A stretch of DNA of 64,000 bases from Candidatus Daviesbacteria bacterium (GCA_016176465.1 JACOXD010000011.1:12318-76317); one strand, 5' to 3'; counted from the first letter of the stretch, positions 1 through 51,221 are shown. A program made the numbers and translations. Notes: generated by a model not told the origin, from the sequence alone.

Positions 1-137
1 CAGGTTGTGTTAACATTTCTACTCCTTATCAGCTCCCTCTTCATCCGATTGTCTTTCCAAAAGCTCCTGTTCGTCATCCTGGCTGCTACAAACCTCACAC
101 GGACATTTACCCGATTCGACCATTTCATCAACTGTGA

Positions 138-1580
138 TCATGCTTCTACCTCCTCTGTGTAGGAAAGTTCGGTTTGCGTTAGTTTAGAAGGTGACACTTG
201 TGACTCATGTGACTCTGCTTCTGATATACCGCTATCTTCTGAAGGGTCTGAATCTTTATTAGGTATATCTGTTTCAGTGTCAGAAGTGTCATTAGAGGTA
301 TCCAAACCATAATTGAGTTTGAGTTTCTCAATTAGATCCAGATCGTAGAAAATCCCTCGCTTACCAGCTGTCCTCTTCTTTACGAACCCTAACCCTCTTA
401 ATATTCTGCCGATGACATCTTCTGCTAGAGTAAATCGTTCTTCCTTACCAGTGTTAATTTTTTTAGTAACAGCCTCTATAGATAGGAATCCTTTTTCTAC
501 TTCGTAATTCAGGTCAATTACCATCTCTAAAACCTTGGCTTCTAGGGAATCAGTTGCATCTTCTTTTTTCCTCTCGGAAATAATGTTTAACAGTCGGGCA
601 AAAGAAGCTTCTTTTTCTGGGAAATAAGTGGTAACTATTTTATATAGTGAGCCAGCAATATCACCCAAACGCCCAGAAGCGGGTTTATCTACCTCTTTCA
701 GCTCATCCTGATAGTGTAAAATCCTAAAAGCAGTTAACCTGGCCTTTAGCTCCCATGCATCCTTAGGCGTTACTGGGTTATTGAATACCTTGCCTGTAGG
801 CTTCATATCAACTGAAATAGCTCTTGACTCTAAAATATCGTCAACAGGTCTATTTGTGGCAATTATGGTTGGACCAAATAAATTAAAGGTTTTGGTATCC
901 CTAAAGGCTCCTTTCTCAGGCCACAGGGTGCGTGATGAACTAGATCCTTCCTCGAACCGTGCCAAAATAAGATCATCACAATTAGCTCTTTGAAACTTCT
1001 TAGGTGCATCCTTAACATCAAAGCCTAAAGCAGCCTTATGGTCGTTACCCCAGCGGATAATATCAGCTTCCCGTACAGTCTCCGTCCATACTCCTCGGCG
1101 AGATACATAGATACATCCCTTACCGGTTCTACTTTTACCCCTCTCCTTAACTGCATAAAGATAAATAATGGGTGAAAAGTGCAGCTTATCCAATAGGTAG
1201 GTATGGAAATCCCACAAGGCTAAAAGGTCGTAATAGGCTTCATGGGGAAGATCTGATATATTCTTATGGTAAGTGAGCAACTCCTCATACAGATCTAAGC
1301 TGTGTCGTAGATTAGCCTTGTATTCAGCTAGATAATGGAAGACTTTGTCAGCATCGGCTATAAAGTAGGGTATTGAACTTTTAGGGGGTGGTGCAAAAAC
1401 CTTATCTTCAACCCTTATGGTGTCTACAAGATTCAGTCCTTCGGTTAGATAAACTAGTTTCTCTTCAACAACTAAGACATCAATGGTTCCTGGAGCATCT
1501 AGGGAGTATGTTACTCTGTCTTCTTTATTACTATCTTTTTTGGCTTTTAGCTTTTCATCAATCCCTTCAAAATTATCCAT
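138..1580 (-). CDS. Replication-associated protein (partner of Prim-Pol; primase C-terminal/helicase-like?), acidic Ser/Asp-rich tail
   Basis: 480 aa ORF overlapping the Prim-Pol stop by 8 bp (operon); no clear Walker A found; function inferred from context only. Confidence 0.3.
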   Translation of the reverse strand: MDNFEGIDEKLKAKKDSNKEDRVTYSLDAPGTIDVLVVEEKLVYLTEGLNLVDTIRVEDKVFAPPPKSSIPYFIADADKVFHYLAEYKANLRHSLDLYEELLTYHKNISDLPHEAYYDLLALWDFHTYLLDKLHFSPIIYLYAVKERGKSRTGKGCIYVSRRGVWTETVREADIIRWGNDHKAALGFDVKDAPKKFQRANCDDLILARFEEGSSSSRTLWPEKGAFRDTKTFNLFGPTIIATNRPVDDILESRAISVDMKPTGKVFNNPVTPKDAWELKARLTAFRILHYQDELKEVDKPASGRLGDIAGSLYKIVTTYFPEKEASFARLLNIISERKKEDATDSLEAKVLEMVIDLNYEVEKGFLSIEAVTKKINTGKEERFTLAEDVIGRILRGLGFVKKRTAGKRGIFYDLDLIEKLKLNYGLDTSNDTSDTETDIPNKDSDPSEDSGISEAESHESQVSPSKLTQTELSYTEEVEA

Positions 1581-2370
1581 TTTTTGTCCTTTCCCTAGTC
1601 AGAAAATTGACAGCACTTTCAAATTTCCGATTGACTTCTTTGGTTGCTAGTGGAGGCTGAAAGGTGGAATTTATAAAGAGCAGAAATTGATAGACTAGTT
1701 TTGATGGGATACCACGAGCCAATAAGCTACAAGCAGCTCTGTAGAGATTAATATCTCTAGCACCCTCTGTTTGCCCTAGAATTGACTTCCAATCCAAATT
1801 AGTTGAACTTTTGTTTGTACCCTGAAGATCAATTATCCATTGAGGCATTTCATGAAATTCATTAACAAATGGTGGAGTAATCCAAGTATATTGATTACCA
1901 GAGGCATGAATTGATGGTGGTAGAATTACGTAACCGCCATCGGATTTTAGATCAATTCCATCTTTTATCCCATTCTGGCTATGAACATTAGGATTATACT
2001 GGTAGAAATGGTGTGATCCACCCCCACCAGTTTGTGACTTAACTGTATCTGTTAGGTTATCAGTAGTACCAGCATGTCTTGGGTCAACATCAATTACACT
2101 AACACCGGATAGTTTTCCTGTAACAAGGCCAATATTTGCCCAGGGCCACTTTGACCACCAATCGTTTATCTCATCAATAGTTGGTAATTTCTTTTGGTAT
2201 TCAAACCAAGACTCAAGACAAGGTTTTTTATTGGACGGGTTAATAGGGATAACTGACCAACCTTTTGAAAGATATTTTAAAGCAGCCTCTAGATTAGTCA
2301 TTCTGTGCTTCCTCCGCTGCAACAAGTACGTATCCCTTTCCCTCACAGCCCTGACAAACTTTCGCTCCAT
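1573..2370 (-). CDS. Bifunctional DNA primase/polymerase (AEP-superfamily Prim-Pol) N-terminal domain protein
   Basis: Motifs KGWSVIP, GLVTG, VIDVDPRHAG (hhDhD), GGGSHHFY (sxH), IDLKSDGGYVILPPSIHASGNQYTW typical of pfam Prim-Pol. Confidence 0.75.
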   Translation of the reverse strand: MERKFVRAVRERDTYLLQRRKHRMTNLEAALKYLSKGWSVIPINPSNKKPCLESWFEYQKKLPTIDEINDWWSKWPWANIGLVTGKLSGVSVIDVDPRHAGTTDNLTDTVKSQTGGGGSHHFYQYNPNVHSQNGIKDGIDLKSDGGYVILPPSIHASGNQYTWITPPFVNEFHEMPQWIIDLQGTNKSSTNLDWKSILGQTEGARDINLYRAACSLLARGIPSKLVYQFLLFINSTFQPPLATKEVNRKFESAVNFLTRERTKNG

Positions 2371-2515
2371 ATTTCAAAGTTCCAAAACCACGACAAACCG
2401 GACACTCAATCGGTAAGTGCTTAGCTTTTACTTTAATTACTCTGATTTTTGTTTCTTTTTGAAAGTCGTCCATGCCATCCAAACCCAATCCTTTGAGATC
2501 ATAATGGCACATCAA
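2294..2515 (-). CDS. Small DnaJ-type zinc-finger protein (CxxCxGxG x2)
   Basis: 73 aa; CPVCRGFG ... CQGCEGKG repeats. Confidence 0.4.
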   Translation of the reverse strand: MMCHYDLKGLGLDGMDDFQKETKIRVIKVKAKHLPIECPVCRGFGTLKYGAKVCQGCEGKGYVLVAAEEAQND

Positions 2516-2603
2516 TTAAGGCTTCTCAAAAGGATTGTGTGAGAATTTTGATCCTGAAACAGACCAAAAAAGTTTTTATTAAAGCCGTATAAAGTAATGG
2601 GGC

Positions 2604-2993
2604 TTAAGTAGGTTTAAGATGATAAAACCACTTTCTACCTCGCCTGAACTTATCTATACCCATGTTCATATTTCTTAAGGGTTCATAAGATTTTATTGTC
2701 TTTCTGGTATCAGTTACCAAACGTCCTGGTGCCTTGCTATTTGTCTCTTCTGCAATCCCATTAATATCAAGGGAACCTTTTATAATAAGCGCTTCAAGTA
2801 GTTTTTGTTGTTTTTCTGGAAAATGAAAATTCTTTATGATAGTTTTGAACAAGCTGGTACGCTGTCTTCTGGCACTCTTTGGGTATTTTGGTTCATCAAT
2901 TTCTCTGATTTCATGACCCTCATCAGCCAAAAAAAGCCGCATTGCTGCTTGGGCAATAGGGGGCATTGATAGTTTTTTCTTCCTTCCATCCAT
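2604..2993 (-). CDS. Hypothetical protein (mobile-element accessory); starts with MDGRKK shared 19-nt start sequence
   Basis: 129 aa ORF; first 19 nt identical to start of ORF at 5262. Confidence 0.35.
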   Translation of the reverse strand: MDGRKKKLSMPPIAQAAMRLFLADEGHEIREIDEPKYPKSARRQRTSLFKTIIKNFHFPEKQQKLLEALIIKGSLDINGIAEETNSKAPGRLVTDTRKTIKSYEPLRNMNMGIDKFRRGRKWFYHLKPT

Positions 2994-3217
2994 CCTTCAA
3001 TAATTCCTTATATTGCGTGCATGGATTAACAGATTTTTCCAAGCTCACTACGCAGGGTAATTATACCTTAAAAAGTAGTATAATTGAATCTGAGCAGGCG
3101 TGGAGATAATTTTACCCCTAAGGATATTAAATTTTAACTATTTTTCACTTATTCTGGAAGCTAATGTAAGATTGTAGTGGGGGTATACATTTTTGATATG
3201 TGCTGTTAACCAGCTTC

Positions 3218-4081
3218 CTAAGGCTGAGCCATAATTTGTATCTTTTCCCGTTCCAATGCACTTTTTTCAGCTTGCAGCAAGTCAATTCTGTATCTCATGT
3301 CAGCTATAGTGTTGTTAATCATTTGTGTACAGATGTAATTATCACACCCTTGATCAAATTGTTGAACTTGGGCCTGTATATTGTTCTGCCAAAAAGCAAT
3401 GTCCTTATTGATCTTATTAATTTTTCCATCAATCATTTTTAGAGCTTGTTCTTTTCCTGTATTGGGGCTGGGAGTTGGTGAGGGGGTGGGTGTTGGAGTA
3501 CTTGTGGGCTTTGGGGTAGGAGAGCTTGTTTTAGGAACTTGAACGGGTTTAGGTGTAGGAGATACGTCCTTCAAAATTATATCTGATGAATCAAGTTTCC
3601 ATTTTCCGTCTTCTAATACCAGCTTCCAGATTCCTTCAAAAGTTTTGGTTTGAACTTGTCCCTTTAAATCATCTTTAGCTTCTATCTGAACATAAACTAT
3701 CTTGTTTGATAAATCCTGGACATAGACATCTTTAGTTACTACATTTAATGTGTTTTTGTAACCACTGACAAAATTATCATAATTCTGGGCATAATTTTGA
3801 AAATTTTTACTTAATAGATTCCAGGCAGAATCAAATTCTTTGGAAGATATTGCGGCATAGAAATCTTTTACAGGTATTAATAGATCAGATTCAACCATGG
3901 GAACAGGAGTTGGAGAAGGTTCTTGTTGCTCGGTTAGATTTTTTATCTGTAACAATCCACCTTCTCCGCTTAGGTTTAATTTAACTAAACCTGTTTCCCT
4001 AACCACCGCTACTGTAAATAATCCTACTACAGCCCAGATTATAATTGGAATTACCACAAATCCTTTTTGAGAGTTTGTCAT
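3218..4081 (-). CDS. Membrane-anchored protein with Pro/Thr-rich linker and C-terminal coiled coil
   Basis: N-terminal TM helix, PTPKPTSTPTPTPSPTPSP linker, Q-rich coiled-coil tail. Confidence 0.45.
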   Translation of the reverse strand: MTNSQKGFVVIPIIIWAVVGLFTVAVVRETGLVKLNLSGEGGLLQIKNLTEQQEPSPTPVPMVESDLLIPVKDFYAAISSKEFDSAWNLLSKNFQNYAQNYDNFVSGYKNTLNVVTKDVYVQDLSNKIVYVQIEAKDDLKGQVQTKTFEGIWKLVLEDGKWKLDSSDIILKDVSPTPKPVQVPKTSSPTPKPTSTPTPTPSPTPSPNTGKEQALKMIDGKINKINKDIAFWQNNIQAQVQQFDQGCDNYICTQMINNTIADMRYRIDLLQAEKSALEREKIQIMAQP

Positions 4082-4126
4082 ATTATTTACTCCTACTTTA
4101 TGTTAACACACCCAAAACCACTACAT

Positions 4127-4309
4127 TCACGGCTGCCACCAAGGTTTTTGACATTCTTCCCAAGCATCAAAACTCGTAATTTTACCCGCCATACGATCAG
4201 CAAATTCCTTTTGGCAATGATTATAGTACACATCACTTCTCCAGAAGTAAAAAAATAGAAGCCCAAACCCTATTAAGGCAACAATTAATACTTTTTGAAA
4301 GGTTGTCAT
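4127..4309 (-). CDS. Small single-pass membrane peptide, MTTFQK family (2 Cys in tail)
   Basis: 60 aa; MTTFQKVLIVALIGFGLLFFYFW... paralogous to 4333-4505 and 4972-5235. Confidence 0.4.
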   Translation of the reverse strand: MTTFQKVLIVALIGFGLLFFYFWRSDVYYNHCQKEFADRMAGKITSFDAWEECQKPWWQP

Positions 4310-4332
4310 TGTTTAATATATATGTTTATTTT

Positions 4333-4505
4333 TTATCAGGAATGAATCCAAAACCTTGCTTCGAATATTGATCGCAAATAGTAAAACGTTGTGGCGTTTC
4401 TGCTGTAGCACAAGCATAAAATTCAAAACCTGTTTTAAAAAAATATAAAAAGAGGGCTCCAAAAACTATTAAAATTGAAATAAGCCATTTTTGAAAAGTT
4501 GTCAT
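4333..4505 (-). CDS. Small single-pass membrane peptide, MTTFQK family paralog (57 aa, not in ORF track)
   Basis: Manual translation of minus strand: MTTFQKWLISILIVFGALFLYFFKTGFEFYACATAETPQRFTICDQYSKQGFGFIPDKK. Confidence 0.35.
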
Positions 4506-4952
4506 TTATCCTTTTCTATCTTTCTTCCTAATATGATCAATAAATATACTAACTATGGCATACAAAAAACCCAGAGCCAAAAAAGCACCCATTAATATTA
4601 GCAGAGATCCTGAGATAGCTCCTCCTATTTTTACTAAAATAGGATTACCCATATACCAACCTAGAAACATGAAAAGTGCGATAATAGATAATATAACAAT
4701 GCCAGTACGCCACACGTTACCTACAACCCACCAAAGTGTCACTTTCAGTCCGTCTTGCTCAATTCTTTTATCAACTTTCTTCCATAGTTTTTGAACAAGT
4801 AGAACTCCAAAGAAAAATAAAAGGACCTTGAAAGTATTCGTGTAGGTTTCTTCTGCAATAAAAGATATAAAAATGATCAAACCCAAGAGGGTAATTATGA
4901 CTGTATTATTTGATTCATCGTTATTGCTGTAATCTCCAATTTTATGTATCAT
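4506..4952 (-). CDS. Multi-pass membrane protein (4 TM), hypothetical
   Basis: 148 aa hydrophobic ORF. Confidence 0.4.
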   Translation of the reverse strand: MIHKIGDYSNNDESNNTVIITLLGLIIFISFIAEETYTNTFKVLLFFFGVLLVQKLWKKVDKRIEQDGLKVTLWWVVGNVWRTGIVILSIIALFMFLGWYMGNPILVKIGGAISGSLLILMGAFLALGFLYAIVSIFIDHIRKKDRKG

Positions 4953-4971
4953 TATTTTCCCTCTAAAAGAT

Positions 4972-5262
4972 TTAGGTTAACCAGAAAAAAATCAAAATTA
5001 CCAGGAAGAAAATAATATAGATTAATGTTATTTTCTTATAAAATTTCTGTTCAGATTTTTGCTCTATAACTAAATCCCATAGACTTAAACCTGTATGAAT
5101 TCCAGTTTTTAAGTTGAATGTAGAAATAGTAACTAGAATTGCCAAAAAAAACATCACTGGCGCAACAGCTGCTATAACTAAAATTTGAATAGGAAAAAAA
5201 AGAATTGCAACAAGCAATTTTTGAAAAGCTGTCATACTATTTGTTTTCTTCCTTCCATCCAT
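4972..5262 (-). CDS. Small membrane protein, MTAFQK family paralog with MDGRKK N-extension
   Basis: ORF track 4972-5301; likely start at 5262 (ATGGATGGAAGGAAG) or 5235 (MTAFQK). Confidence 0.35.
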   Translation of the reverse strand: MDGRKKTNSMTAFQKLLVAILFFPIQILVIAAVAPVMFFLAILVTISTFNLKTGIHTGLSLWDLVIEQKSEQKFYKKITLIYIIFFLVILIFFWLT

Positions 5263-5449
5263 ACCAGTATGAAAGTAGGAAAATTCCAATGATAACCACA
5301 ATTACTACTACCTGTTGTGAGTCTCCTCTTTCAAGAACTGGGGAAAGAAGCTGAAGCCCAAGAATTAAAGTTATTACAAAAAGAACTGCATAGGCATATT
5401 TTCTAAATCTCTTTGGAAACAGCAATAAAAGCCAAAGAATAGGATTCAT
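5237..5449 (-). CDS. Small 2-TM membrane protein, hypothetical
   Basis: 70 aa hydrophobic ORF. Confidence 0.3.
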   Translation of the reverse strand: MNPILWLLLLFPKRFRKYAYAVLFVITLILGLQLLSPVLERGDSQQVVVIVVIIGIFLLSYWYGWKEENK

Positions 5450-5531
5450 GTTCGTTTAACCTCAATTCATGCGTAAAACTGGAATATATTTCCTGTTCAT
5501 ATTCTGGCATATATTCCAGAATTTAGTCAAT

Positions 5532-5741
5532 ATGACCAAATATAAAAAACTTGGAGAGAAAGTTAAGAAATTGAGGAAAGCTCGAGATTGGACGCAAGAA
5601 AAATTGGCAGAAGCTGCAAATGTTGACCCAAAGACAATTATAGAGTTAGAAGCTGGTAAAAGAGCAAACCCTACCCTCCAAACTCTTAATAAACTTGCAA
5701 GAGCCTTAAAAACTTCTCTTGAAGAGTTACTCTCTACCTAA
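5532..5741 (+). CDS. XRE-family helix-turn-helix transcriptional regulator
   Basis: LGEKVKKLRKARDWTQEKLAEAANVDPKTIIELEAGKRANPTLQTLNKLARAL; start moved to internal ATG 5532. Confidence 0.7.
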   Translation: MTKYKKLGEKVKKLRKARDWTQEKLAEAANVDPKTIIELEAGKRANPTLQTLNKLARALKTSLEELLST

Positions 5742-5976
5742 AAATCCTGAGATGGTACCAATTTGAAGAAATTTATCCAGCTGGGGTTTTAAGGACCCTT
5801 AGAATAAGGACAGGGGACGTGAGAACCTATATATATTTTCCCACAGTTCCTATCTATGCTGTAAGCACAAAGTCACACACCACCTTCTGTATCAGAGAAA
5901 CCCCTTTTCTTTCTACTTCCTGTAATGTTAGTTATCGGAACAAAAATTGTCTGTCCTCCTATCTTAGCCTCAGCGT

Positions 5977-6699
5977 TCAGTTAATGGTCGTATACTGAAC
6001 ACCTGTGGGCAAATAATCCTTATAAAATGGGTTGTCCAAGATATATTTTATGCTTGATTTACCCATTCCAAACTTATCCCCAATAGCTTGCAAGGTTAGC
6101 TTCTCTTTTATTCTGAAGTTAAAGATTGCTTTTACCTTTTCAAACTCATTCTTATCAATGACCAAATCACTCTTTTGTGCCATATTACGCTTCTTTAACT
6201 TAAAGCCAAGCGGTAACATATCAGGTGATCCAAGTCTTCTACCCTGCCTTGTAAGTTCCTGTAGTGCATCAATTGTACGTTCTGCTATCAGATCCCGCTC
6301 CATCTGTGCCATAGCTCCCATGACTGTAAGAAAAAACTTACCAGAAGCAGAACTTGTATCTATATTCTCGTTTAGACTTATAAATTGAATATCATTTTTT
6401 GCAAAAACATCTTCAATAAGATAGAGGAGGTCCCGAGTTTTACGGGTTAATCGGTCTAATTTGTAGCAAATAACACCATCTATTTTCTTTTCCTTGACTA
6501 AATTTATGATTTTTTGAAGTCCTGGTCTATTCATGGTCTTACCAGATTTACCCTCCTCAATAATCATTTCCACTAAATCCATGTCCTTTAAATCCGCATA
6601 AGCCATAATTTTATGCTCCTGATTATCTAAGCTAACACCATCACGGCTCTGCTCAAGAGTTGATACCCTGGTATATCCAATTACTCTAAGCTTTTTCAT
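5977..6699 (-). CDS. Serine recombinase (resolvase/invertase type, N-terminal catalytic domain)
   Basis: VIGYTRVSTLEQ ... DGVICYKLDRLTR ... catalytic-Ser resolvase motifs. Confidence 0.85.
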   Translation of the reverse strand: MKKLRVIGYTRVSTLEQSRDGVSLDNQEHKIMAYADLKDMDLVEMIIEEGKSGKTMNRPGLQKIINLVKEKKIDGVICYKLDRLTRKTRDLLYLIEDVFAKNDIQFISLNENIDTSSASGKFFLTVMGAMAQMERDLIAERTIDALQELTRQGRRLGSPDMLPLGFKLKKRNMAQKSDLVIDKNEFEKVKAIFNFRIKEKLTLQAIGDKFGMGKSSIKYILDNPFYKDYLPTGVQYTTIN

Positions 6700-7241
6700 T
6701 TTTCTTCCTCATCAACAATTTTTATCCTTCTGTATCCCTTAATTGGTTTGCCATATGCGTAATGCGTTGGTGAACCTAAGATAGATTGCGGACGTCCTTT
6801 GTATTCTGGTTGATCTAATTTCTTAGTGAAATGTTTAACATCCGCTGTGAGTTTTCTGATGTCCTCGTTACAGGTATATAGATTTATTGCTTGGTGTAAG
6901 AAAACCGCCATAGAACCGCCAGGTTGGGCAGTTAATACTGGAGATAGCTTTTCAATAGCCTCATTAAACTGTTGTACTAATTTCGATCTTTCTTCTGATT
7001 TATCCGGTAAAGGAAGTCCAGCATATACTAATAACTCGGTACCATTTATCCTGTACCATTTACCTCCAAATTTATTAGCCTGTAACCTTCCTGATTTGAT
7101 AGCTCGATGAATAGTGGCTACTGAAACATGAAGCAATTCAGCTGCTTCCTCTGCTGTATAGGTCGTGAAATGTAATATTGGATCGCTCATAATGTTTAAG
7201 TCTACATCAACGATGATGTATTTGTCAATATTAAGATTCAT
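6696..7241 (-). CDS. Excisionase-family HTH DNA-binding protein (Xis/MerR-like) with C-terminal extension
   Basis: TAEEAAELLHVSVATIHRAIKSGRLQANKFGGKWYRING; 4-bp overlap with recombinase start. Confidence 0.55.
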   Translation of the reverse strand: MNLNIDKYIIVDVDLNIMSDPILHFTTYTAEEAAELLHVSVATIHRAIKSGRLQANKFGGKWYRINGTELLVYAGLPLPDKSEERSKLVQQFNEAIEKLSPVLTAQPGGSMAVFLHQAINLYTCNEDIRKLTADVKHFTKKLDQPEYKGRPQSILGSPTHYAYGKPIKGYRRIKIVDEEEK

Positions 7242-7286
7242 AATTAGATCATTTGCATGTGCTCTTGATAATCTTGAAAGGGGTAA

Positions 7287-7832
7287 CTAGTCTAATGAAA
7301 GGTTAATGGTCTTAACTTTCTCGATAGCCACCTTAAAGGCAGTGATACCATCGACTAAATCGGCATAGGCTCTATGTAATTGCCTAAAAGATACATACTT
7401 ACCAAGGCTATTCCAAGAAGGATGTGCAAAATCATTCCTTATATCATTTACTCTTGTCATTAATCTAAATAAGTCAACATCGAATTCGTATGTTTCATTA
7501 AGCTTTCTAAAAACCTCTAAGCGGCGAGCAAAACCTAATCTTTCTATAAAATTATCATAAAGAAACCTTGCTCTAGCTAATTGCGGTCCAGTTAGAGGTT
7601 TATCCCGAATTAAAATCCCTTTTGGATAAAAGTAATGTAGGATTGTAGTCGTCATCCCATCATCCATTTCAGCGTGAACAAAAATGGCCCAGTGCCTCAG
7701 CTCTTTTAAATCTTCTTTGGTTATATCTCCAAATGGTGGAGTCCTTCGATCAAAAACAGTTTCTAATCCCTCTAATATTTGTTTAAGAGTTGTAATCTGT
7801 TGCTTGTAGTTATTCACCCAGAAATTATACAA
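7287..7832 (-). CDS. Hypothetical protein
   Basis: 181 aa ORF, no recognised motif. Confidence 0.3.
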   Translation of the reverse strand: MYNFWVNNYKQQITTLKQILEGLETVFDRRTPPFGDITKEDLKELRHWAIFVHAEMDDGMTTTILHYFYPKGILIRDKPLTGPQLARARFLYDNFIERLGFARRLEVFRKLNETYEFDVDLFRLMTRVNDIRNDFAHPSWNSLGKYVSFRQLHRAYADLVDGITAFKVAIEKVKTINLSLD

Positions 7833-8089
7833 TAGAAGAACATATACTACCGTATGAACTCAAAGAGATCTGTAAATTTGTAGTTCCTGAAATGACAGGT
7901 TTGGTATTAGGGCCAGACTAACGTCTACCAGGTGGACACCAGAGCCCTAATTAAACCGCAAAAGTAGCTATTTTTAAATGATTCTTAAGTTGAGATAATT
8001 GAGCAAATAGTAATTGTGTTTCACTTGAGTTACTATCTAACAGTTGCGTTATAGGTTCGAGTACAGAACCGACTCCCGCTCCAAGATGG

Positions 8090-8860
8090 AACACCTTCGA
8101 GGTGGTCTAGGCAGGCACCTCTTCTCTATTCTAAAACCAAGTGCTTGATCTTATCTAATTCTCTAGCATAGCTTACTTGATCCAAAACAAATTTTTTATA
8201 TTCATTTATAGATTTAAAAAAACCTAAAACCTCCTCAGAGCTTGTAATCTTCTCTGCTTTTGGTACCAAATACTCAAAGTAAGAAGACCATTGGTAGTTT
8301 TCCAAATCCTCCGTCTTAATTAAGTAGGAAGTTACTGGGTTTAGATGAATATATCTTGATAGATGAATAAACTGTTCATCAGAATCAACAAACACTGCCT
8401 TGAATAACCCCTGAAGAAGTGGACCCACTCTTTTATTTTTGGTGTTAAAGTATTTGGTATAAGAGTTAGAAAAGTTAGATATAAATTTAGATATACCATT
8501 TTCTTTCTTCTGCTTTAGTAGGAAGTGAAAATGGTTGGGCATTAAACAAAAAGCAATAATTTCTACTAATACATTCTCATCATCTAAGTTTTTCCATAAT
8601 TCATCTTTTTTGTCATTTGCGAGATCTAAAAACTTGGAAAATTTCAAAGGCAGACTTCCGTAGCGGTAAAACTTTAAAGTTTCTAAAGCTCTTGAATATT
8701 CCCTGCTTTTGGTAAAAATTGGACGCTTCTCTACACCTCGATTAAAAACATGATAGATGATCTGCTCATTTGCAAAAACAAACTTTCTATTTGTGGGCAT
8801 CTATTTAAAGTATGGACTAAAAAAGGACAGGTGTCAACCCAGACCACCTTTCAGGTGGTT
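8090..8860 (-). mobile_element. IS200/IS605-like element (HUH Y1 transposase flanked by CACCT-N3-AGGTG hairpins; TTGACA in left end)
   Basis: Hairpins at 8092-8104 (caccttcgaggtg) and 8844-8858 (ccacctttcaggtgg) flank tnpA-like ORF; same motif flanks second copy at 42.5 kb. Confidence 0.6.
8126..8800 (-). CDS. tnpA: IS200-like / REP-associated tyrosine (HUH, Y1) transposase
   Basis: HuH motif LMPNHFHFLL and catalytic Tyr in SRYIHLNPV; ~70% identical paralog at 42589-43233. Confidence 0.75.
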   Translation of the reverse strand: MPTNRKFVFANEQIIYHVFNRGVEKRPIFTKSREYSRALETLKFYRYGSLPLKFSKFLDLANDKKDELWKNLDDENVLVEIIAFCLMPNHFHFLLKQKKENGISKFISNFSNSYTKYFNTKNKRVGPLLQGLFKAVFVDSDEQFIHLSRYIHLNPVTSYLIKTEDLENYQWSSYFEYLVPKAEKITSSEEVLGFFKSINEYKKFVLDQVSYARELDKIKHLVLE

Positions 8861-17239: not shown

Positions 17240-17297
17240 CTACAAAAAAATTAGTTGGGAAAACTATTACTGTTTGGTTTAGATATGCCTTCACTTT

Positions 17298-17327
17298 AGC
17301 TTTCAACCCCCGGGGTTTCCACATAAA
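17298..17327. repeat. 30-bp GC-core repeat, left copy of inverted pair (partner 23384-23413)
   Basis: agctttcaacccccggggtttccacataaa is the reverse complement of the 23384-23413 copy except for a one-base shift in the C/G core. Confidence 0.6.
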
Positions 17328-17907: not shown

Positions 17908-19278
17908 TTAGAGCTTAAATCTTCTGTCTGCTAAAAAAGGATTTGCTTTCCTATAAACTTTAACTGAGTTAAGTAAAACCCCTCTTTGCAAAGTAAACTC
18001 TCCAAACTTATCATTAATTTTATCTAAAGCTTTAGTTATAACTTCTTTTACTTTTACTTCTGGAAGAAGATTTAAGTTTTCAGGAGTTGTTGGTTTTAAA
18101 TTAGAAATAGAAATACCTATCATTCTTATAGCTTTCTCATCCCAAAGGCTCATGAATATCCCCCACCCTGTTTTAAATATTTCCAAACCGTCACTAGTAA
18201 AAGAAACTGTGCTTTGCGCTCCATCTCCTAAGAATCCAATCCCGGTTTGGAATTGAGGCGACAAACCGGGATTGTAGGTTTGTTTAAATGCATATCTAAA
18301 CCAAAGGGAAACAGTTTTACCTACTAGTTTTTTGGCTCGCATTCTTCTTGCAACTAATTCTGAAAGCTTAAGCAAGATTTGTTTAATTTCTTCATAAGAG
18401 TCTGCGTCATGATCTATTGTGTGTCTATGACCAATTGATTTTACTTCTTCTTTCTCATAAAAAGGGCTGACAGGAGAATCATCCAATCCCCTGCTCATGT
18501 TATATAAAGTTTGTCCATAACTTTTAAAAGAGGCTAATAAATACTCCAAGTTTACTCTTCTTAAATCAGAAAAATTAAAAATCCCCATATTATTTAACCT
18601 CCTTTTAATCCTAAACCCTATCCCACAAACCTCATTTAGCTCAATTTGGTCTAAAATTCTCATTGCTGCCTGCTCATCTGCTATTACCAGCAACCCATCG
18701 GGTTTGTATAAAGACCCAGCTAATTTAGCTAAAAATTTGTTATAAGAAATCCCAATAGAACATGTAATCCACTCCCCAATCTTAGCTCTTATTTGGGATT
18801 TAATATCTATAGCCATTTCAATAACGTCATTCCCGACCCGCTTCGCCGGAGCGAGAGCGAGGCGAGCCTGATCGGGAATCTGAATAGATCTCCCAATCGA
18901 GTTGGAAGATGACATTTTTAATTTGGGTGATGACTTCTTGGGCTGAGGCAGTTCTATAAATGCCTCATCGATAGAGAAAAGCTCTATATAGGGGGAATAG
19001 CTTTTTAGAATATTTAAAAATTTTTTAGTAGTAGATAAGTATTTATCAGAATCCCCTTTTACTAAAATTAATTGTGGACAAAGTTTTCTAGCTTCATATA
19101 AATTCATCCCAGTTTTTACCCCAAACTTTTTAGCCTCCACTGATGCAGCACCAACTACAGTCCTCTTCATTCTATCTCCACCAGTTACCCCAATAGGTTT
19201 ACCTCTAAGTCTTGGGTTAGCTTGCTGTTCAACCCTGGCAAAGTAGCTATTAAAATCTATATGTAATATTGTTCTCAT
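17908..19278 (-). CDS. dinB: DNA polymerase IV (Y-family, DinB) carrying two in-frame palindromic insertions
   Basis: ILHIDFNSYFARVEQ, SIDEAFIEL, YNKFLAKLAG; insertions at 18237-18274 and 18829-18879. Confidence 0.8.
   Translation of the reverse strand: MRTILHIDFNSYFARVEQQANPRLRGKPIGVTGGDRMKRTVVGAASVEAKKFGVKTGMNLYEARKLCPQLILVKGDSDKYLSTTKKFLNILKSYSPYIELFSIDEAFIELPQPKKSSPKLKMSSSNSIGRSIQIPDQARLALAPAKRVGNDVIEMAIDIKSQIRAKIGEWITCSIGISYNKFLAKLAGSLYKPDGLLVIADEQAAMRILDQIELNEVCGIGFRIKRRLNNMGIFNFSDLRRVNLEYLLASFKSYGQTLYNMSRGLDDSPVSPFYEKEEVKSIGHRHTIDHDADSYEEIKQILLKLSELVARRMRAKKLVGKTVSLWFRYAFKQTYNPGLSPQFQTGIGFLGDGAQSTVSFTSDGLEIFKTGWGIFMSLWDEKAIRMIGISISNLKPTTPENLNLLPEVKVKEVITKALDKINDKFGEFTLQRGVLLNSVKVYRKANPFLADRRFKL
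18237..18274. repeat. RPE-like palindromic element (perfect 13-bp stem CAATCCCGGTTTG/CAAACCGGGATTG) in frame within dinB
   Basis: Encodes YNPGLSPQFQTGIG; near-identical copies in uvrB and uvrC. Confidence 0.7.
18829..18879. repeat. GC-rich palindromic in-frame insertion in dinB (ATTCCCGA-35 nt-TCGGGAAT)
   Basis: ~70% GC segment in AT-rich gene; encodes extra loop IPDQARLALAPAKRVGNDV absent from canonical DinB. Confidence 0.5.
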
Positions 19279-23383: not shown

Positions 23384-23413
23384 TTTATGTGGAAACCCCC
23401 GGGGTTGAAAGCT
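23384..23413. repeat. 30-bp GC-core repeat, right copy of inverted pair (partner 17298-17327)
   Basis: tttatgtggaaacccccggggttgaaagct. Confidence 0.6.
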
Positions 23414-23481
23414 AATATGTTAAGAGATTATACAGCCCTATAGTTTGATTAATATCCTCAAATACCTTATAATTATAAATC

Positions 23482-39305: not shown

Positions 39306-40619
39306 TTATATACCTACTCTGCTAAACATTTTTTTACTTCTTAACTTAAGGTGATAGTTAAGTGCAAAACGGTGGGATTCATCTCTGATTTTTTGCAATA
39401 AACGAAGAGACATTCTTCTTTTAGGGATCTTTACAATTTCTCCCTCAATTGGATATAACCTCTCCATTTTTTTTGCCAATCCAAATATAGGAATACTTAC
39501 TTCTCGTTTCTCTAAGATAGCGGCCACCCCTCTAACCTGACCTCTCCCTCCATCGATTATAATTAAATCTGGAAAGGGCCACTCAGGATGATTTAGTCTC
39601 CTCCTCATCATCTCAGATAGCATTGCTACATCATTAGGTTTTCCAGTAATTTTTATTTTAAACTTTCGATACTGCGATTTATCTATTTCTCCATTTGCTA
39701 AAACTACAAGTGATCCTGAAGCTTCCCCCCCTTGAATATTAGAAATATCATAACCTTCAATCCTCTTAGGCAAATTAGGCAATTTCAAATCCGTCATTAG
39801 CTGCTTTAATCCCAACTTATTTTGGTCTTCCAAAAAATTAGGATTATCTAAATACATTGAAATCTCAGTTGGTTGGGTAATATATTCAATCCCAGAAATT
39901 GTTTTCTTTAAAGTTTCTGCCTTTTCAAATTGCAAGTTTTTTGCAAGATCTTTCATTTCAACTTGCAACTCACTTAACAAAACTTCTTTTTCTCCACCTA
40001 TAAATTTAATAAAGCGGTTAATAATTTTTCGGTACTCTTTTGCATCTATCAAACCTATACAGGCTCCGGGACAAAGTCTTAGATGATAGTAAAAACATGG
40101 TCTAGCTTTCCAATCCCGGATTGGATTTGAATTGACAATCCGGGATTGGATGGTTATTTTCGATGGATTAGAACACCAAGGGAAGACTCTCCTTATTTTT
40201 TTTAAAGTTTGATTAACAGTACGGGATGAAGGAAAAGGACCAAAATATTTCAATGCATCGCTTAGTTCCTGCTTTCTGGAAGTTATTATCCTTGGGAACT
40301 TTTCCTTAGTGACTTTAATATAAAGATAATCTTTATTATCAGTTAAGCGGACGTTAAAGGTGGGCAAATTTTTTTTAATTAAATTGGCTTCCAAAATAAG
40401 TGCTTCTAATTCCGATTCCACCACAAAAAAAACAATGTCGGCAATACTTTCTACTAATTGGGCTGTTTTTAAAGATGATCTATCTCTAAAATAGGAGGCA
40501 ACCCTGGACTTTAAATCTACTGCTTTGCCCACATATAAAATGTCACCTTTTAAATCTTTAAATATGTAAACGCCACTTTTGTGAGGAATATCCTCTTTCG
40601 ATAAATTCTTGGGAATCAT
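39306..40619 (-). CDS. uvrC: Excinuclease ABC subunit C (short form lacking C-terminal HhH2) with in-frame palindromic insertion
   Basis: GIY-YIG SGVYIFKDLKGDILYVGKA, UVR domain, RDESHRFAL; 437 aa. Confidence 0.8.
   Translation of the reverse strand: MIPKNLSKEDIPHKSGVYIFKDLKGDILYVGKAVDLKSRVASYFRDRSSLKTAQLVESIADIVFFVVESELEALILEANLIKKNLPTFNVRLTDNKDYLYIKVTKEKFPRIITSRKQELSDALKYFGPFPSSRTVNQTLKKIRRVFPWCSNPSKITIQSRIVNSNPIRDWKARPCFYYHLRLCPGACIGLIDAKEYRKIINRFIKFIGGEKEVLLSELQVEMKDLAKNLQFEKAETLKKTISGIEYITQPTEISMYLDNPNFLEDQNKLGLKQLMTDLKLPNLPKRIEGYDISNIQGGEASGSLVVLANGEIDKSQYRKFKIKITGKPNDVAMLSEMMRRRLNHPEWPFPDLIIIDGGRGQVRGVAAILEKREVSIPIFGLAKKMERLYPIEGEIVKIPKRRMSLRLLQKIRDESHRFALNYHLKLRSKKMFSRVGI
40110..40149. 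repeat. RPE-like palindromic element (15-bp stem CCAATCCCGGATTGG/CCAATCCGGGATTGG) in frame within uvrC
   Basis: Encodes IQSRIVNSNPIRDW; read in a different frame from the dinB/uvrB copies. Confidence 0.7.
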
Positions 40620-42534: not shown

Positions 42535-43265
42535 TAGCTTGACACTAGCTTGACACCTGAAAGGTGTACGCATAAACTTTACTAGTATATGCCTGGTAGA
42601 CTTGTACCCCTAGTTAATGGAGAGTTTTATCATATTTATAATCGTGGTAGTGATAAGCGCAATATTTTTTTGCAAAATAGAGATTACATCAGATTTCAAA
42701 AAACTTTTTATTATTACCAATTTTTAGGTCCGAAGGTAAGATTTTCTAAATTTGCTAAATCTACCTTAAACCTCTTTAATCCAACACTAAATGAAAAATT
42801 AGTAGAAATTCTCTGCTTTTGTTTAATGCCTAATCATTTCCACCTACTTTTGGTTCAACAAAAAGAAAACGGCATTTCTTCCTTTATTAGTCAACTTGCT
42901 AATAGCTACACCAAGTACTTTAATACGAAATATTCTAGGGTAGGTGCATTATTTCAAGGAGTTTTTAAGTCTGTGCGGATTTCATCAGATGAGCAGCTAA
43001 TTCATATATCACGCTACATACATATTAACCCAATAGTATCTGGTTTAACAAAGAACCTCAAAAACTATAAGTGGTCATCATATTCTGAATACTTACGAAA
43101 TAGAGAAACTTTTTGCCAGATCAGCACTATTTTAAATCTTTTCCCTTCTTCCAAAAAATACTCTGAGTTTATTGAAAATCAAATTAGCTATGGAACCACT
43201 CTCGAAATGATTAAACATCAAAAAATTGATTAATTAAATTCGTGCGGACACCTGAAAGGTGCAAA
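42535..43265 (+). mobile_element. IS200/IS605-like element, second copy
   Basis: LE tagcttgaca-tagcttgacacctgaaaggtgtac (42535-42568) with TTGACA/TAAACT promoter; RE hairpin cacctgaaaggtg 43249-43261. Confidence 0.6.
42589..43233 (+). CDS. tnpA: IS200-like / REP-associated tyrosine (HUH, Y1) transposase
   Basis: LMPNHFHLLL and SRYIHINPI; paralog of 8126-8800. Confidence 0.75.
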   Translation: MPGRLVPLVNGEFYHIYNRGSDKRNIFLQNRDYIRFQKTFYYYQFLGPKVRFSKFAKSTLNLFNPTLNEKLVEILCFCLMPNHFHLLLVQQKENGISSFISQLANSYTKYFNTKYSRVGALFQGVFKSVRISSDEQLIHISRYIHINPIVSGLTKNLKNYKWSSYSEYLRNRETFCQISTILNLFPSSKKYSEFIENQISYGTTLEMIKHQKID

Positions 43266-43266
43266 G

Positions 43267-46170
43267 TTAAATAACTTTTGCTAAATATTGACCTGTGTAA
43301 GAGGATTTATTCTTTGCAATGTCTTTTGGAGTACCTTCTGCTATTACTTTTCCACCTAAATCTCCACCTTCAGGTCCTAAATCTATTACCCAGTCTGCGT
43401 TTTTAATTACATCTAAGTTGTGTTCAATAATCAAAACAGTATTTCCCAGGTTAACTAACTTTGTCAAAATTGTCAGTAACCTTTCTATATCTGCAAAGTG
43501 CAAACCAGTTGTAGGCTCATCCAGAATATACAAAGTAAGTCCTGTTTGTCTTTTGGATAATTCCGTTGCTAGTTTTATTCTTTGGGCTTCTCCACCTGAT
43601 AAAGTTGGCGCAGGTTGACCCAAGTGAATATAACCTAATCCTACCTCATTTAAAACTTGTAATTTATTTTTAGCTTGTGGGATATTGGCAAAAAATTCCA
43701 GTGCCTCCTCAACTGTCATATCTAGCACATCAGCAATATTTTTATCCTTAAAGTGAATTTCCAAAGCTTCTCTGTTATAACGTTTCCCATTACATGCCTC
43801 ACAAGTTACATAAATATCAGGCAAAAATTGCATCTCTATTTTAATTTGTCCTTCTCCCTCGCAAACTTCACACCTACCTCCTTTTACATTAAAAGAAAAC
43901 CTACCTGGCTTATATCCTTTAATTTTTGCCTCAGGGGAGGTTGCAAATAACTCTCTAATAAAAGTAAAAAGTCCTGTATAAGTTGCTGGATTAGATCTAG
44001 GCGTTCTGCCAATAGGTGATTGATCAACTAAAATTACTTTATCAATATTCTCATCCCCCTCCAATCTTTCAAATTTGCCCGGACGTTCTTTAGAGTGATA
44101 AAACTTAGAAGCTAGGGATTTAAACAAAATATCATGGATTAAAGTAGATTTACCCGATCCAGAAACCCCTGTTATAGCTATGAAATTACCCAAAGGGAAC
44201 TCTACATCAACATTTTTTAAGTTATGTTCCGAGGCTCCCAAAACTTTTAAAATGGTGGTATTTTCTTTAATTAATCCGTTAGTCTTGACTTCCACCTTTT
44301 TTCTACCTGCCAAATAAGCACCGGTCAAGCTCTGCTTATTTTTCATTAACTCCAAAGGAGTCCCAGTAGCAACAATTTTTCCGCCGTGTTCTCCAGCTCC
44401 CGGGCCGATTTCATAAAGAATGTCGGCGTTTTCCATTGTTTCACTATCATGCTCACTAACAATAACTGTATTTCCCAAGTCTCTTAACTTTTTTAGGGTT
44501 GTAATTAATCTTCTATTATCTCGCTGGTGCAATCCAATTGATGGTTCATCTAAAACATATAAAACCCCTGATAAACCTGAACCTATCTGGGAAGCAAGCC
44601 TAATTCTTTGTGCTTCTCCTCCTGCCAAAGTCATAGAAGAGCGATCTAGCGTTAAATAATTTAAACCAACGTCCATTAAAAACTGTAATCTTGATTCAAT
44701 CTCTTTAACTACAGGTTTAGCAATTGTTAATTCCCGTTCACTAAGCAATGGGGTTTTTAACTCCTTAACCCAATCCAAACCCTGAGCTATGGATTGAGAA
44801 GTAACTTCGGAAATGTTGGAATCATTAATAGTGATGGATAAAACTTCATCTTTTAACCTTGCGCCGTTACACTTGGGACAAATCTCCCGCAGCATGTATT
44901 TTTCAATTTCACCCTTAACATAATCAGACTCGGTTTCAGAGTAGCGCTCTTTTAAATAAGGCACGATCCCCTGGAAAGTTGAGTAAAAATGAGTCCATCG
45001 TCCTTGCCTATTTTTACCTTCAACTTTAAACTGCTTGTCTCCATCCCCAAATAATAATACTTTTCTGGCCTGCGCGGATAGCTGGCCAAGTCTGGTACTC
45101 AGATCAAAACCATACTCTGCCCCGACAGCTTCAATAAGCCTGGAAAACCAGGTTTCCGATCCAGCTAAACGCTGCCAGGGCAAAATGCCTCCTTCTCTAA
45201 TAGATAAAATAGGATTTAAGATTGCATCAGCATCTATTTCTAAAAGTGACCCAAGTCCCGCGCAAGTAGGACAAGCTCCATGAGGAGAGTTAAAAGAAAA
45301 AGTTCTTGGTTCTATTTCAGGCAAAGCAATGTTATCTACTGGACAAGCAAACCGCTCTGAATATAAATGATCCTCCATTTTTTTGGGGTTAGTAGGGAAT
45401 TCTAAAGAGGCATCCAAGACTTCCGAAACAATTAATGTTCCCTCCCCCAACTTTAGCGCTGTTTCAACTGATTGATTGAGTCTGGATTTAACTTGTGAAT
45501 CTTTAATAGATTTAGCGTCTAAACTCAATCTATCAACCAGCGCATCAATACTATGTTTATTAGTTTTAATTAACATTAAATCCTCTGATAAATCCCTAAT
45601 CTGCCTATCAATTCTGGCTCTTGAAAATCCTTTTTTCGCAAGATCATCTAAAAGAGAGCTATACTCCCCCTTTCTATCTTTAACAATAGGGGCTAAAATC
45701 ATTATCCTTTTTATCTTTCTATTTGATCCTTCGACTACGCTTTGGATAACGCTCTGTGTTATTTGCTCAACACTCATTCTGGATATTTCCCTGCCACAAA
45801 TAGGACAATGCGGGTGACCAACTCTGGCAAAAAGTAATCTTAAATAATCATAAACTTCTGTTGTAGTGCCTACTGTAGAGCGAGGATTGTGAGAGGCGCT
45901 CTTTTGGTCAATTGAAATAGCCGGAGATAACCCTTCTATATAATCTACATCTGGCTTATCCATTACTCCTAAAAACTGTCTAGCATAAGCACTCAAAGAT
46001 TCTACATATCTTCTTTGCCCTTCAGCATATAAGGTATCAAAAGCTAAGGAAGATTTCCCCGAACCAGAGATACCTGTAAAAACTACTAATTTATTTTTCG
46101 GTATAACTAAATCTATATTCTTAAGATTATGCTGCCTGGCTCCTTTTATAATAATTTTATCTGTTGACAA
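43267..46170 (-). CDS. uvrA: Excinuclease ABC subunit A
   Basis: Two ABC ATPase modules, [33 protein letters not shown], Zn-finger Cys; TTG start. Confidence 0.95.
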
Positions 46171-49115: not shown

Positions 49116-51134
49116 TTAACTGCTTAATTCTCTTATTTGATCCCTTAATCTTGCTGCTGTTTCAAAATCTAAAAGTGCTGCAGCATCTCTCATCTGTTTT
49201 TCTAATTCTTTAATAATTCTTCCTCTCTCTTTTAATGGTATATCTTCAACTGTTAATACATCCTTCCCTAATTTTTCCTCAACTTTTTCTATTAACCTTT
49301 CCCTTAATGCTTTTTCTATCGAGCGTGGTTTAATTTTATGTTTTTTATTAAATTCTATTTGATAATTCCTTCTTCTTGAAACCTCATCTATTGCTCCTTG
49401 TATTGATTTAGTAATGGTGTCTGCATACATGATTACTGCTCCATCAACGTGTCTGGCAGCACGACCCATTGTTTGGATTAAAGATGTTTTTGACCTTAAA
49501 AATCCTTCTTTATCTGCATCCAAAATAATAACCAAAGATACTTCAGGTAAATCTAACCCTTCCCTTAAAAGATTAATTCCTACAATTACATCAAATTCCC
49601 CTAATCTTAAACTTTGTAAAATATCAGAACGCTCTAAAGTAGCAATATCTGAGTGTAAATAATTGACTCTAATCCCCTTTTCTTTAAGGTAATCAGTTAA
49701 ATCCTCAGCCATCCTTTTAGTTAAAGTGGTTATTAAAACTCTCTCACCTTTACTTACCCTTTTTTCTACTTCCTTAATTACATCTTCAATTTGCCCCTCT
49801 GTTTTTCTAACAGATACTTGCGGATCAACAATACCTGTGGGTCTTACTAATTGCTGGGCTACATTGTTTGGGCTTCCAATCCCGGTTTGGAACTGAGTTG
49901 ACAAACCGGGATTGTAGCCTGCAAGTGAAAACTCATATTCATCAGGAGTAGCAGAAACATAGACAGCTTGATTAACCCTCCTCATAAACTCCTCAAACTT
50001 TAAGGGCCTATTATCTAGTGCGCTAGGCAACCTAAAACCAAATTCAACTAAAGTCTCCTTCCTGGAGCGATCGCCGTTATACATTCCTCTAATTTGAGGG
50101 ATGGTAATGTGGGATTCATCAATAATTATTAAATAATCTTTAGGAAAAAAATCTAAAAGAGTATAGGGTGGTTCACCTGGATCTCTACCATCAAAATATC
50201 TTGAGTAATTCTCAATCCCATTACAAAAACCAAACTCCTTTATCATCTCCAAATCATAATAAGTGCGCTGTTCTAACCTTTGAGACTCAAGTAATTTTCC
50301 TTGAGATTTTAAATCTTTCAATCTTAACCTTAAATCATCTTCAATTTGAAAAGTTGCTGGTTTAATTAATTGTTGAGGTGTTATATAGTGTTTTGCAGGA
50401 TACAAAGTTAAAGTTTCTAGAGTAGGAATTGACTTGCCAGTAAGAGGATCCAAATGGGAAACTCTTTCAATTTTATCTTCCAAAAACTCAATCCTTAATG
50501 CAAAGTCAGAGTAAGCTGGGAAGATATCTAAAGTGTCTCCTTTTAATCTATACGTTCCTCTTTCAAAGTCAAAATCATTTCGGACGTAAAACATTTTATT
50601 AAGCATCTTTAAGATAGATTCCATTCCTGATTTAACTCCATTTTTTAGTTGCAGTATTGCCCCTCCATATTCCTTCGGTGAACCTAAGTTATAAATACAA
50701 GAAACAGAGGCTACAACTACAACATCAGACCTAGTCATTAAAGAAGTAGTTGTTGAGAGTCGCAGTTTTTCAATCTCCTCGTTAATGGATGCATCTTTTT
50801 CAATATAGGTATCAGATGAAGGAACATAAGCCTCAGGCTGGTAATAATCATAGTAAGAAACAAAATACTCAACGGCATTTTCAGGAAATAAGGACTTAAA
50901 TTCTTGTGCCAATTGCCCGGCTAATGTTTTATTATGAGAGATAACTAGTGTTGGTCTATTTACAGCTTGGATGACATTAGCCACAGTAAAAGTTTTACCA
51001 GAACCTGTTACACCAAGCAAAACTTGATGTTTCTCATTATCCTTAATCCCCCTTACTAATTTCTCAATAGCTTGGGGCTGATCACCAGTAGGCTTAAAAT
51101 CTGAAATTATTTTAAACTTAGACATAAAGTTCAT
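49116..51134 (-). CDS. uvrB: Excinuclease ABC subunit B with in-frame palindromic insertion
   Basis: [10 protein letters not shown], helicase motifs, C-terminal UVR domain; insertion at 49877-49914. Confidence 0.95.
49877..49914. repeat. RPE-like palindromic element (perfect 13-bp stem, same arms as the dinB copy) in frame within uvrB
   Basis: caatcccggtttgg-aactgagttga-caaaccgggattg encodes [14 protein letters not shown]. Confidence 0.7.
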
Positions 51135-51187: not shown

Positions 51188-51221
51188 TTAGCTTGACACC
51201 TGAAAGGTGTACTCGTAAATT
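51188..51221 (+). promoter_or_regulatory. Solo IS200-like left-end/REP-like hairpin carrying outward TTGACA-17-TAAATT promoter
   Basis: tagcttgacacctgaaaggtgtac identical to LE of the 42.5 kb IS copy; no transposase adjacent. Confidence 0.4.

Follow-up and report, generated by a model that had tools for sequence, protein, structure and literature searches.

A palindromic insert in the uvrC gene of a Candidatus Daviesbacteria bacterium is probably a REP/REPIN-type repeat carried in a loop of UvrC

A hairpin-forming palindrome lies inside the coding sequence of uvrC in a Candidatus Daviesbacteria bacterium and is translated with the rest of the gene. What kind of element is it, and how does the gene accommodate it? 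The DNA analyzed here, called the window, is a stretch of 64,000 nucleotides (nt) from assembly GCA_016176465.1 (JACOXD010000011.1:12318-76317), and coordinates given without a contig name are positions in it. Loci and contigs from other genomes are cited by number (L017, for instance). With a probability of about 0.8, we regard the uvrC element as a repeat of the repetitive extragenic palindromic (REP) or REPIN type that has a cognate Y1 gene, resembling those of the REP-associated tyrosine transposases (RAYTs), in related genomes and that rides as a passenger in a loop of UvrC.

The uvrC hairpin and its sister copies

The host gene and the parts of the element are as follows.

39306..40619, minus strand: uvrC host gene, 437 amino acids (aa), an intact open reading frame (ORF) with GIY-YIG, UVR and UvrC RNase H domains.
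40106..40151, minus strand: inserted unit in uvrC, probably of REP/REPIN type, about 45 nt, boundaries +/-1-2 nt.
40103..40108, plus strand: TAGCTT head, directly 5' of the hairpin.
40109..40123, plus strand: left hairpin arm TCCAATCCCGGATTG, nearly self-palindromic (CCAATCC-C-GGATTGG).
40124..40135, plus strand: spacer or loop GATTTGAATTGA, with TGA in two plus-strand frames; the minus strand is stop-free in all frames.
40136..40150, plus strand: right hairpin arm CAATCCGGGATTGGA, followed by GGAT here and by GTAG in most family members.

The initial annotation had described a perfect 15-bp stem at 40110-40149. The sequence there is as quoted, except that the second arm is aCAATCCGGGATTGG and not CCAATCCGGGATTGG. 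As aligned in that annotation the stem has 14 bp inside 40110-40149, with the innermost G40124 and A40135 unpaired. Once the outer T40109-A40150 pair is added, the hairpin spans 40109-40150 with a perfect 15-bp stem and a 12-nt loop. Folded as DNA, the element reached -16.9 kcal/mol (z = -6.5), and the opposite strand formed the same 15-bp stem and 12-nt loop at -16.8 kcal/mol (z = -7.0); on each strand 0/200 shuffled sequences were as stable. Across element copies the folding z-scores ranged from -5.2 to -7.0. The architecture of a REPIN is present, since CCAATCCCGGATTGG and CAATCCGGGATTGG are each near-palindromic, mutually inverted and 11-12 nt apart. The sole match in an Rfam scan of 39800-40500 was mir-145, whose gathering score is 50 and which reached 20 bits here as a chance hairpin.

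The uvrC hairpin had been assigned to a dispersed palindromic family, and this was borne out. With at most two mismatches allowed, the 15-mer arm occurs at 4 places in the window, counted as 8 strand-matches, where chance would give 0.04. The three copies of the element lie at 18236-18274, 40110-40149 and 49876-49914, and a repeat finder grouped them at 18221-18274, 40095-40148 and 49861-49914. The two sister copies are in dinB, which encodes a DinB-family polymerase (17908-19278), and in uvrB (49116-51134).

18232..18276, minus strand: dinB copy, within the IMS_C / little-finger region; translation YNPGLSPQFQTGIG.
49872..49916, minus strand: uvrB copy, 45 nt or 15 codons, read as YNPGL..QTGIG.

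The uvrB copy has clean boundaries. Exactly 15 codons of the window gene are absent from the uvrB genes of L034 and L035, and the inserted DNA is TACAATCCCGGTTTGTCAACTCAGTTCCAAACCGGGATTGGAAGC, 45 nt. No target-site duplication was evident at the uvrB insertion, where at most a 1-2-nt ambiguous overlap was seen. The length of about 45 nt given for the uvrC unit is by analogy with this insertion. Compared at the sequence level with their orthologues, the uvrC and uvrB copies are true insertions.

The element is translated on the minus strand inside UvrC, as first proposed, and codons 157-171 (40151-40107) read IQSRIVNSNPIRDWK. The uvrC frame stays open through it, and the ORF at 39306-40619 retains all of its domains. 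The frame does differ from that used in dinB and uvrB, by one base of register (CAA/TCC/CGG versus AAT/CCC/GGT). A unit of 45 nt is a multiple of three and therefore causes no frameshift in any codon phase. This length, together with a stop-free strand, is why the same DNA yields IQSRIV..PIRDWK in uvrC and YNPGL..QTGIG in dinB and uvrB.

Openness of the family consensus was only partly as expected from a comparison with the palindromic elements of Rickettsia. In a six-frame translation 3/3 frames were open on one strand (FQSRIVKSNPIRDWK, SNPGLSSQIQSGIG and PIPDCQVKSNPGLE) and 1/3 on the other, the total being only 4/6 because of TGA codons in the spacer of one strand. The proposal that a palindrome tolerates insertion in either orientation thus holds for the stop-free strand, in any frame, and for a single frame of the opposite strand, where the other two carry TGA. 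The spacer is oriented the stop-free way in each of the three window copies and in almost every intragenic copy elsewhere; L054 alone departs from this, and its variant spacer contains no TGA. Among genes the element DNA is read in three different frames, and intergenic copies exist as well. By these sequence comparisons, conservation is at the DNA level and not at the protein level.

The IMS domain of dinB contains a second GC-rich palindromic stretch at 18829-18879, ATTCCCGA..N35..TCGGGAAT, which coincides with about 35 extra residues inside the DinB catalytic domain. Among the window and the fetched loci it was seen as a single copy, without significant folding (z = -1.8).

The wider family and its association with RAYT-like genes

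Y1 homologues were collected by tblastn with the Pfam Y1_Tnp protein of L035, and proteins at least 67% identical to the L017 protein were treated as one clade. In 11/11 genes of this L017 clade the element core lies 19-23 nt upstream of the ATG, and the copies at this position are the fullest ones in the related Daviesbacteria/Microgenomates genomes. No element core was found upstream of Y1 genes from any other clade among the homologues collected. Directly after the stop codon of the L017-clade genes is a single 15-nt palindromic unit, TTCGAACCTA, with the same left flank. Other clades have other hairpins: of the two Y1 genes in L035, AACCCCAGGGGTT flanks one and CAACCTCGAAGGTTG the other. 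The element is associated with one RAYT-like clade, and it is because all 11 L017-clade genes carry it while other clades carry other hairpins that we assign it to the REP/REPIN type with a cognate RAYT-like gene.

The Y1 proteins scored 29-42 bits against Pfam Y1_Tnp (PF01797; cutoff 23), and HFH (HUH) and YIHLNP motifs are visible in them. Their sole NCBIfam match was REP_Tyr_transpos (NF047646), with E values of 1e-12 to 1e-16. In most copies of the element GTAG abuts the hairpin, on the 3' side of its strand (5'-CTAC on the other).

On this identification the element would be a short non-autonomous palindromic repeat composed of two inverted 14-15-nt units and an 11-12-nt spacer, with the TAGCTT head before the hairpin and, in most copies, GTAG after it. 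The transposase would recognize the hairpin on single-stranded DNA and copy the element to new sites in trans; we infer such RAYT-driven mobility from sequence. Only harmless copies would be kept. A copy that landed in the stop-free orientation within a permissive surface loop would add 15 residues and leave the gene unbroken, whatever the codon phase.

Several observations weigh against this reading. The NF047646 scores of 47-59 bits are below the 80-bit NCBIfam cutoff, and phmmer of the L017 RAYT-like protein against the PDB gave no match. The 64-kb window contains no cognate L017-clade RAYT gene, and both of its Y1 genes bear hairpins other than the uvrC element. The canonical polarity, with GTAG 5' of the hairpin, is not seen; TAGCTT occupies the 5' side, and the window uvrC copy has GGAT. 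Repeats around the cognate RAYT gene are in direct and not in the canonical inverted orientation. Extragenic location is a REP trait, and 3/3 window copies are inside ORFs, though REPs within genes are on record (PMC3733652). Copy number is low, at 3 per 64 kb and 5 distinct sites in the best-sampled metagenome-assembled genome (MAG). The similarity of copies within a genome could equally come from gene conversion, and the window uvrC copy, which differs from the dinB and uvrB copies at 5-6/34 nt, may be an old immobile relic.

The distribution of the family was examined with a 34-nt core pattern in one genome per species. Matches were restricted to Daviesbacteria/Microgenomates MAGs and three low-GC MAGs labeled 'Gammaproteobacteria'. 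A metagenome scan added 32 loci. The two scans together amount to 38 distinct sites, every one on a low-GC, Daviesbacteria/Microgenomates-like contig. Matches of 31-33 nt at L001, L007, L008, L011, L014, L016, L022 and L028 were discarded as unrelated terminator-like hairpins with A/T runs. The number of distinct sites was 5 in MAG CAYWKL and 4 in CAYLXC.

Besides the window, five contigs have a copy in the UvrC loop that separates the first cysteine (Cys1) of the Fe-S motif from the second (Cys2). With the window included, at least six contigs carry the element in this loop. A second site in uvrC, inside the GIY-YIG domain, is occupied in L044/L060 and L054. The other hosts are RecO (L053), Tgt (L055), peptide deformylase (def; L059/L063) and a TsaB-like gene of several genomes, and the element also occurs in intergenic DNA. 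A variable A/T position of the arms is complementary in 32/38 sites (20 A-T, 12 T-A), as would fit selection on the hairpin or its templating.

MAGs CAYLXC, CAYWKL and CAYHYM (L003, L004, L006, L015, L017, L018, L021, L024, L027, L029, L031) are titled 'uncultured Gammaproteobacteria'. They have 35-37% GC, their UvrC is 60-63% identical to that of the window with the same short architecture, and they contain the same repeat family. Their taxonomic label is probably wrong.

At the second uvrC site, after SYFR in the GIY-YIG domain, L044:11053/L060 and L054:1070 have identical flanks and an inverted spacer, giving the peptides YNPGLKVQNQSGIGS and YNPGLVLNLQSGIGS. This flip-flop of the spacer makes some copies appear to have swapped flanks. 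The simplest explanation of spacer inversion would be that the arms recombine or that the template is switched from one arm to the other. In one MAG two contigs end and start within the same element copy (L006:1-49 and L021:4672-4711); the hairpin can break short-read assemblies.

The two Y1 genes of the window are the following.

42589..43233, plus strand: RAYT-like Y1 gene of another clade, 214 aa, flanked by ACACCTGAAAGGTGT hairpins at 42546-42576 and 43247-43272.
8126..8800, minus strand: second RAYT-like Y1 gene, 224 aa, with CCACCT..AGGTGG hairpins at about 8091 and 8844.

Not cognate to the uvrC element, the gene at 42589-43233 is located between a transglutaminase-like gene and uvrA, and its TAGCTTG-ACACCTGAAAGGTGT hairpins are in inverted orientation; a third such hairpin (51189-51219) is just upstream of uvrB. 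The hairpins around the gene at 8126-8800 have the form CCACCT(TTCA/TCGA)GGTGG. That gene edges a putative mobile element at the left end of the window, where approximately positions 1-8000 look like an integrated mobile element or prophage remnant with a serine recombinase (Resolvase), HTH proteins, Prim-Pol/PriCT_1 and many small ORFs without a Pfam match.

The TAGCTT head also precedes other hairpin families of the same genome. A third family with this head, TTAGCTTTC-AACCCCCGGGGTT-TCCACATAAA, is present as two inverted copies, 97% complementary, at 17296-17327 and 23384-23415, and is related to the AACCCCAGGGGTT repeats at one of the L035 Y1 genes. When TAGCTT followed by a hairpin was scanned for against control hexamers, stems of at least 5 bp were not discriminating; only five sites, with GC-rich stems of at least 6 bp, were clearly REP-like.

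The UvrC loop and alternative explanations

A deposited Candidatus Daviesbacteria protein, encoded on an 82.6-kb contig, matches the window UvrC with 100% identity. In UvrC the element separates Cys1 from Cys2 of the Fe-S cysteine motif, C149-X25-C175-X3-H179-X3-C183-X3-C187. The published motif is C-X6-14-C-X3-H/Q-X3-C-X3-C, and the Fe-S cluster protrudes from the enzyme core (PMC10085695). The window protein was aligned with 120 orthologues 58-65% identical to it. Cys1-Cys2 spacing is 25 residues in the window UvrC versus 8-13 in insert-free orthologues; L036, for example, has C-X13-C. Removal of the 15 element-encoded residues reduces the window spacing to X10. All four cysteines are invariant among 62 aligned orthologues.

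The insertion point was located on an AlphaFold2 model of UvrC, in which the confidence score pLDDT falls below 50 at residues 156-162 and 164-168 (mean 80.5) and residues 143 to 175 are without secondary structure. A sequence search for solved structures returned none that covers the Cys1-Cys2 region. In the predicted structure the element adds 15 aa to a surface loop. UvrC with the insert is most likely still functional, to judge from its sequence, and the insert would be neutral.

UvrC proteins of the window clade are short (413-459 aa). They stop right after RNase H, so the canonical C-terminal (HhH)2 domain is missing. Across Daviesbacteria the Cys1-Cys2 loop is hypervariable, with at least four insert types including TMQPPRLQAK and GFLDS..TIAKTR (orthologues P0001-P0120, L034:10001-11350 and L035:10001-11308). 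The first of these two types is represented in L035, whose insert (TLQPSRLQA) is a genuine copy of the hairpin family that flanks the second Y1 gene of that contig, and 4 copies share flanks. The L034 insert contains a CACTGC-TGAAA-GCAGTG hairpin. In different lineages the loop is thus occupied by two REP families and probably by a third.

A single ancient insertion is an unlikely alternative. The uvrC copy would then be immobile and vertically inherited, the likeness of copies within a genome would be due to gene conversion, and apparent recurrence in the UvrC loop would reflect repeated loss or decay. Same-loop copies in at least six genomes and in 14/120 orthologues agree with such a history, as do degenerate versions of the insert (e.g. 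YPKYRFANSKPIQFRK). The window uvrC copy has no GTAG tail, is 5-6 nt from the other window copies, and has as its nearest relative another uvrC copy (L029, 3 differences). However, in CAYLXC and CAYWKL the uvrC copy differs by 0-2 nt from non-orthologous copies of the same genome and by 3-8 nt from the uvrC copies of other genomes. Over the whole family, differences per 34 nt averaged 2.7 within a genome versus 5.5 between genomes (permutation p < 1e-4). Left junctions also differ by genome (CSN/LQSR versus CSNPPKxx/QSR), and L029 has a partial duplication of the element end. The 14 orthologues with an insert are scattered among insert-free ones, the nearest UvrC relatives of the carriers mostly have no insert, and an unrelated second REP family occupies the same loop in L035. 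The junctions, the within-genome likeness and the other loop inserts favor repeated insertion (or conversion) into a site that is permissive or preferred.

The identity of the host genes raises a further possibility. Among the four recognizable repair genes of the window (uvrA, uvrB, uvrC and dinB), 3/4 carry the element, compared with 0 of about 55 other ORFs; Fisher's exact test gave roughly 1e-4 in a hand calculation made after the fact. Over all loci, repair genes are 4/7 of the host genes. This bias may mean either that weakly constrained genes tolerate the element or that it has a function there. One version, that the enrichment in repair genes and the repeated occupation of the UvrC loop are more than tolerated, either because RAYT-like enzymes preferentially target these genes or because selection keeps insertions whose gain and loss, by way of hairpin or peptide, modulates nucleotide-excision repair as a reversible mutator or regulatory switch in bacteria of the Candidate Phyla Radiation, seems to us quite improbable.

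Still less likely is a palindrome that is not selfish at all and serves as a functional cis-element of a DNA-damage regulon, either as an intragenic operator for a dimeric repressor or as an mRNA hairpin that tunes expression. It would explain why the 3 window copies all fall in repair genes, with none in about 55 other genes, and why the element is also in recO and at a second uvrC site; Di Nocera et al. thought it unlikely that a bias toward repair genes was fortuitous (PMC3733652). But the element is also in tsaB, tgt, def and intergenic DNA, every L017-clade transposase gene is flanked by it, and its position within genes is not promoter-proximal. It is absent from uvrB and uvrC of close relatives and is therefore not a conserved regulatory feature. 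An SOS/LexA-type operator as the principal explanation was ruled out by the tsaB, tgt, def and intergenic copies together with the transposase flanks. A LexA homologue (LexA_DNA_bind plus Peptidase_S24) does adjoin uvrB in a related Daviesbacteria contig (L034:1224-1841), so an SOS-type regulator exists in this group.

A conventional MITE (miniature inverted-repeat transposable element), with terminal inverted repeats, a DDE transposase and target-site duplication, is very improbable. The two inverted 14-15-bp arms do resemble terminal inverted repeats, but 45 nt is below the 70-300 bp of described MITEs (PMC3733652), the uvrB insertion has clean edges and no evident duplication, the sole consistently adjacent gene encodes a Y1 and not a DDE transposase, and no insertion sequence was found whose ends match. 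An assembly or sequencing artefact, or a uvrC pseudogene, is hardly credible: although a contig of another MAG breaks within an element copy (L006/L021), the uvrC ORF is intact with all domains and invariant residues including the four cysteines, and the same insertion is present in independent assemblies and samples.

Two other candidates were rejected. A tRNA fragment was suggested by GGTTCGAA in the flank, which contains no complete T-arm and varies among copies. A mini-intron, a bulge-helix-bulge (BHB) intron and an intein were excluded because all copies are a multiple of 3 nt with the host frame open, so that nothing needs removal.

Comparison with known systems

Intragenic REPs have been described within ORFs, concentrated in uvrA, uvrB, uvrD, recBCD and error-prone polymerase genes, and mutator effects were speculated upon (Di Nocera, De Gregorio & Rocco 2013, BMC Genomics 14:522; PMC3733652). 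Like those GTAG-tagged repeats, the Daviesbacteria element is a short palindrome, often a dimer, that is inserted in frame and adds about 15-30 aa; in both, GTAG abuts the palindrome, RAYT or RAYT-like genes are associated, and repair genes are overrepresented. The preference of intragenic REPs for genes of nucleotide-excision and translesion repair, noted in 2013, is reproduced independently by our analysis. The Daviesbacteria element differs in its host, a member of the Candidate Phyla Radiation (CPR), in having GTAG 3' and TAGCTT 5', and in its host genes uvrC, dinB and recO. It differs also in that the UvrC loop holds at least two, probably three, REP families in different Daviesbacteria lineages.

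The REPIN-RAYT system (Bertels & Rainey 2011, PLoS Genet; PMC3116915, PMC3337134) shares the larger hairpin made of two inverted REPs and a spacer, the Y1 gene flanked by its own repeat with a separate family for each RAYT clade, and copies that are more similar within than between genomes. Copy number is tens at most in Daviesbacteria versus hundreds in that system, and the doublet is about 45 nt versus about 100 nt. By a rough tally, about half of the Daviesbacteria copies away from RAYT genes are intragenic, unlike REPINs. The RAYT-like proteins are also below the curated model cutoff, and the flanking repeats are direct. With the E. coli REPs and TnpA-REP (Messing et al. 2012, NAR; PMC3479197) the element has in common an HUH/Y1 nuclease, a hairpin repeat beside the gene and a conserved short motif at the foot of the hairpin. 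E. coli REPs have GTAG 5' of an imperfect, bulged hairpin (PMC3479197), whereas the Daviesbacteria stem is perfect and its 5' motif is TAGCTT.

The initial annotation drew an analogy with the Rickettsia palindromic elements (RPEs), and the in-frame insertion into ORFs, here uvrC, dinB and uvrB, is indeed shared. RPEs (Ogata et al. 2000, cited in PMC3733652) too are selfish palindromes inserted in frame in a small and compact genome, tolerated in surface loops and with uvrB as a host. They are described as tagged with CGTC and without a dedicated transposase (PMC3733652); the Daviesbacteria element has no CGTC at either end and does have a cognate Y1 gene. RPE-1 is longer, and RPEs have no sequence relationship to the Daviesbacteria element.

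For annotation, 15-residue inserts of this kind are not to be taken as lineage-specific functional motifs of UvrC, UvrB or DinB. The Cys1-Cys2 loop of the UvrC Fe-S motif provides a concrete test case, having received this element, a second REP family (L035) and a third hairpin insert (L034). The element would show how a very compact genome accommodates repeats, by a unit of 3n length, one stop-free strand, surface loops and any codon phase. Since in-frame REPs (2013) and Rickettsia RPEs (2000) have already been reported, the kind of element is known. No report joining REP/RAYT with CPR was found in the literature searched, and the element, if correctly identified, extends REP/RAYT-type repeats to this radiation. 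What is new in comparison with the known systems is the CPR host, the 3n length, the flipped spacers at orthologous sites and the multi-family UvrC loop.

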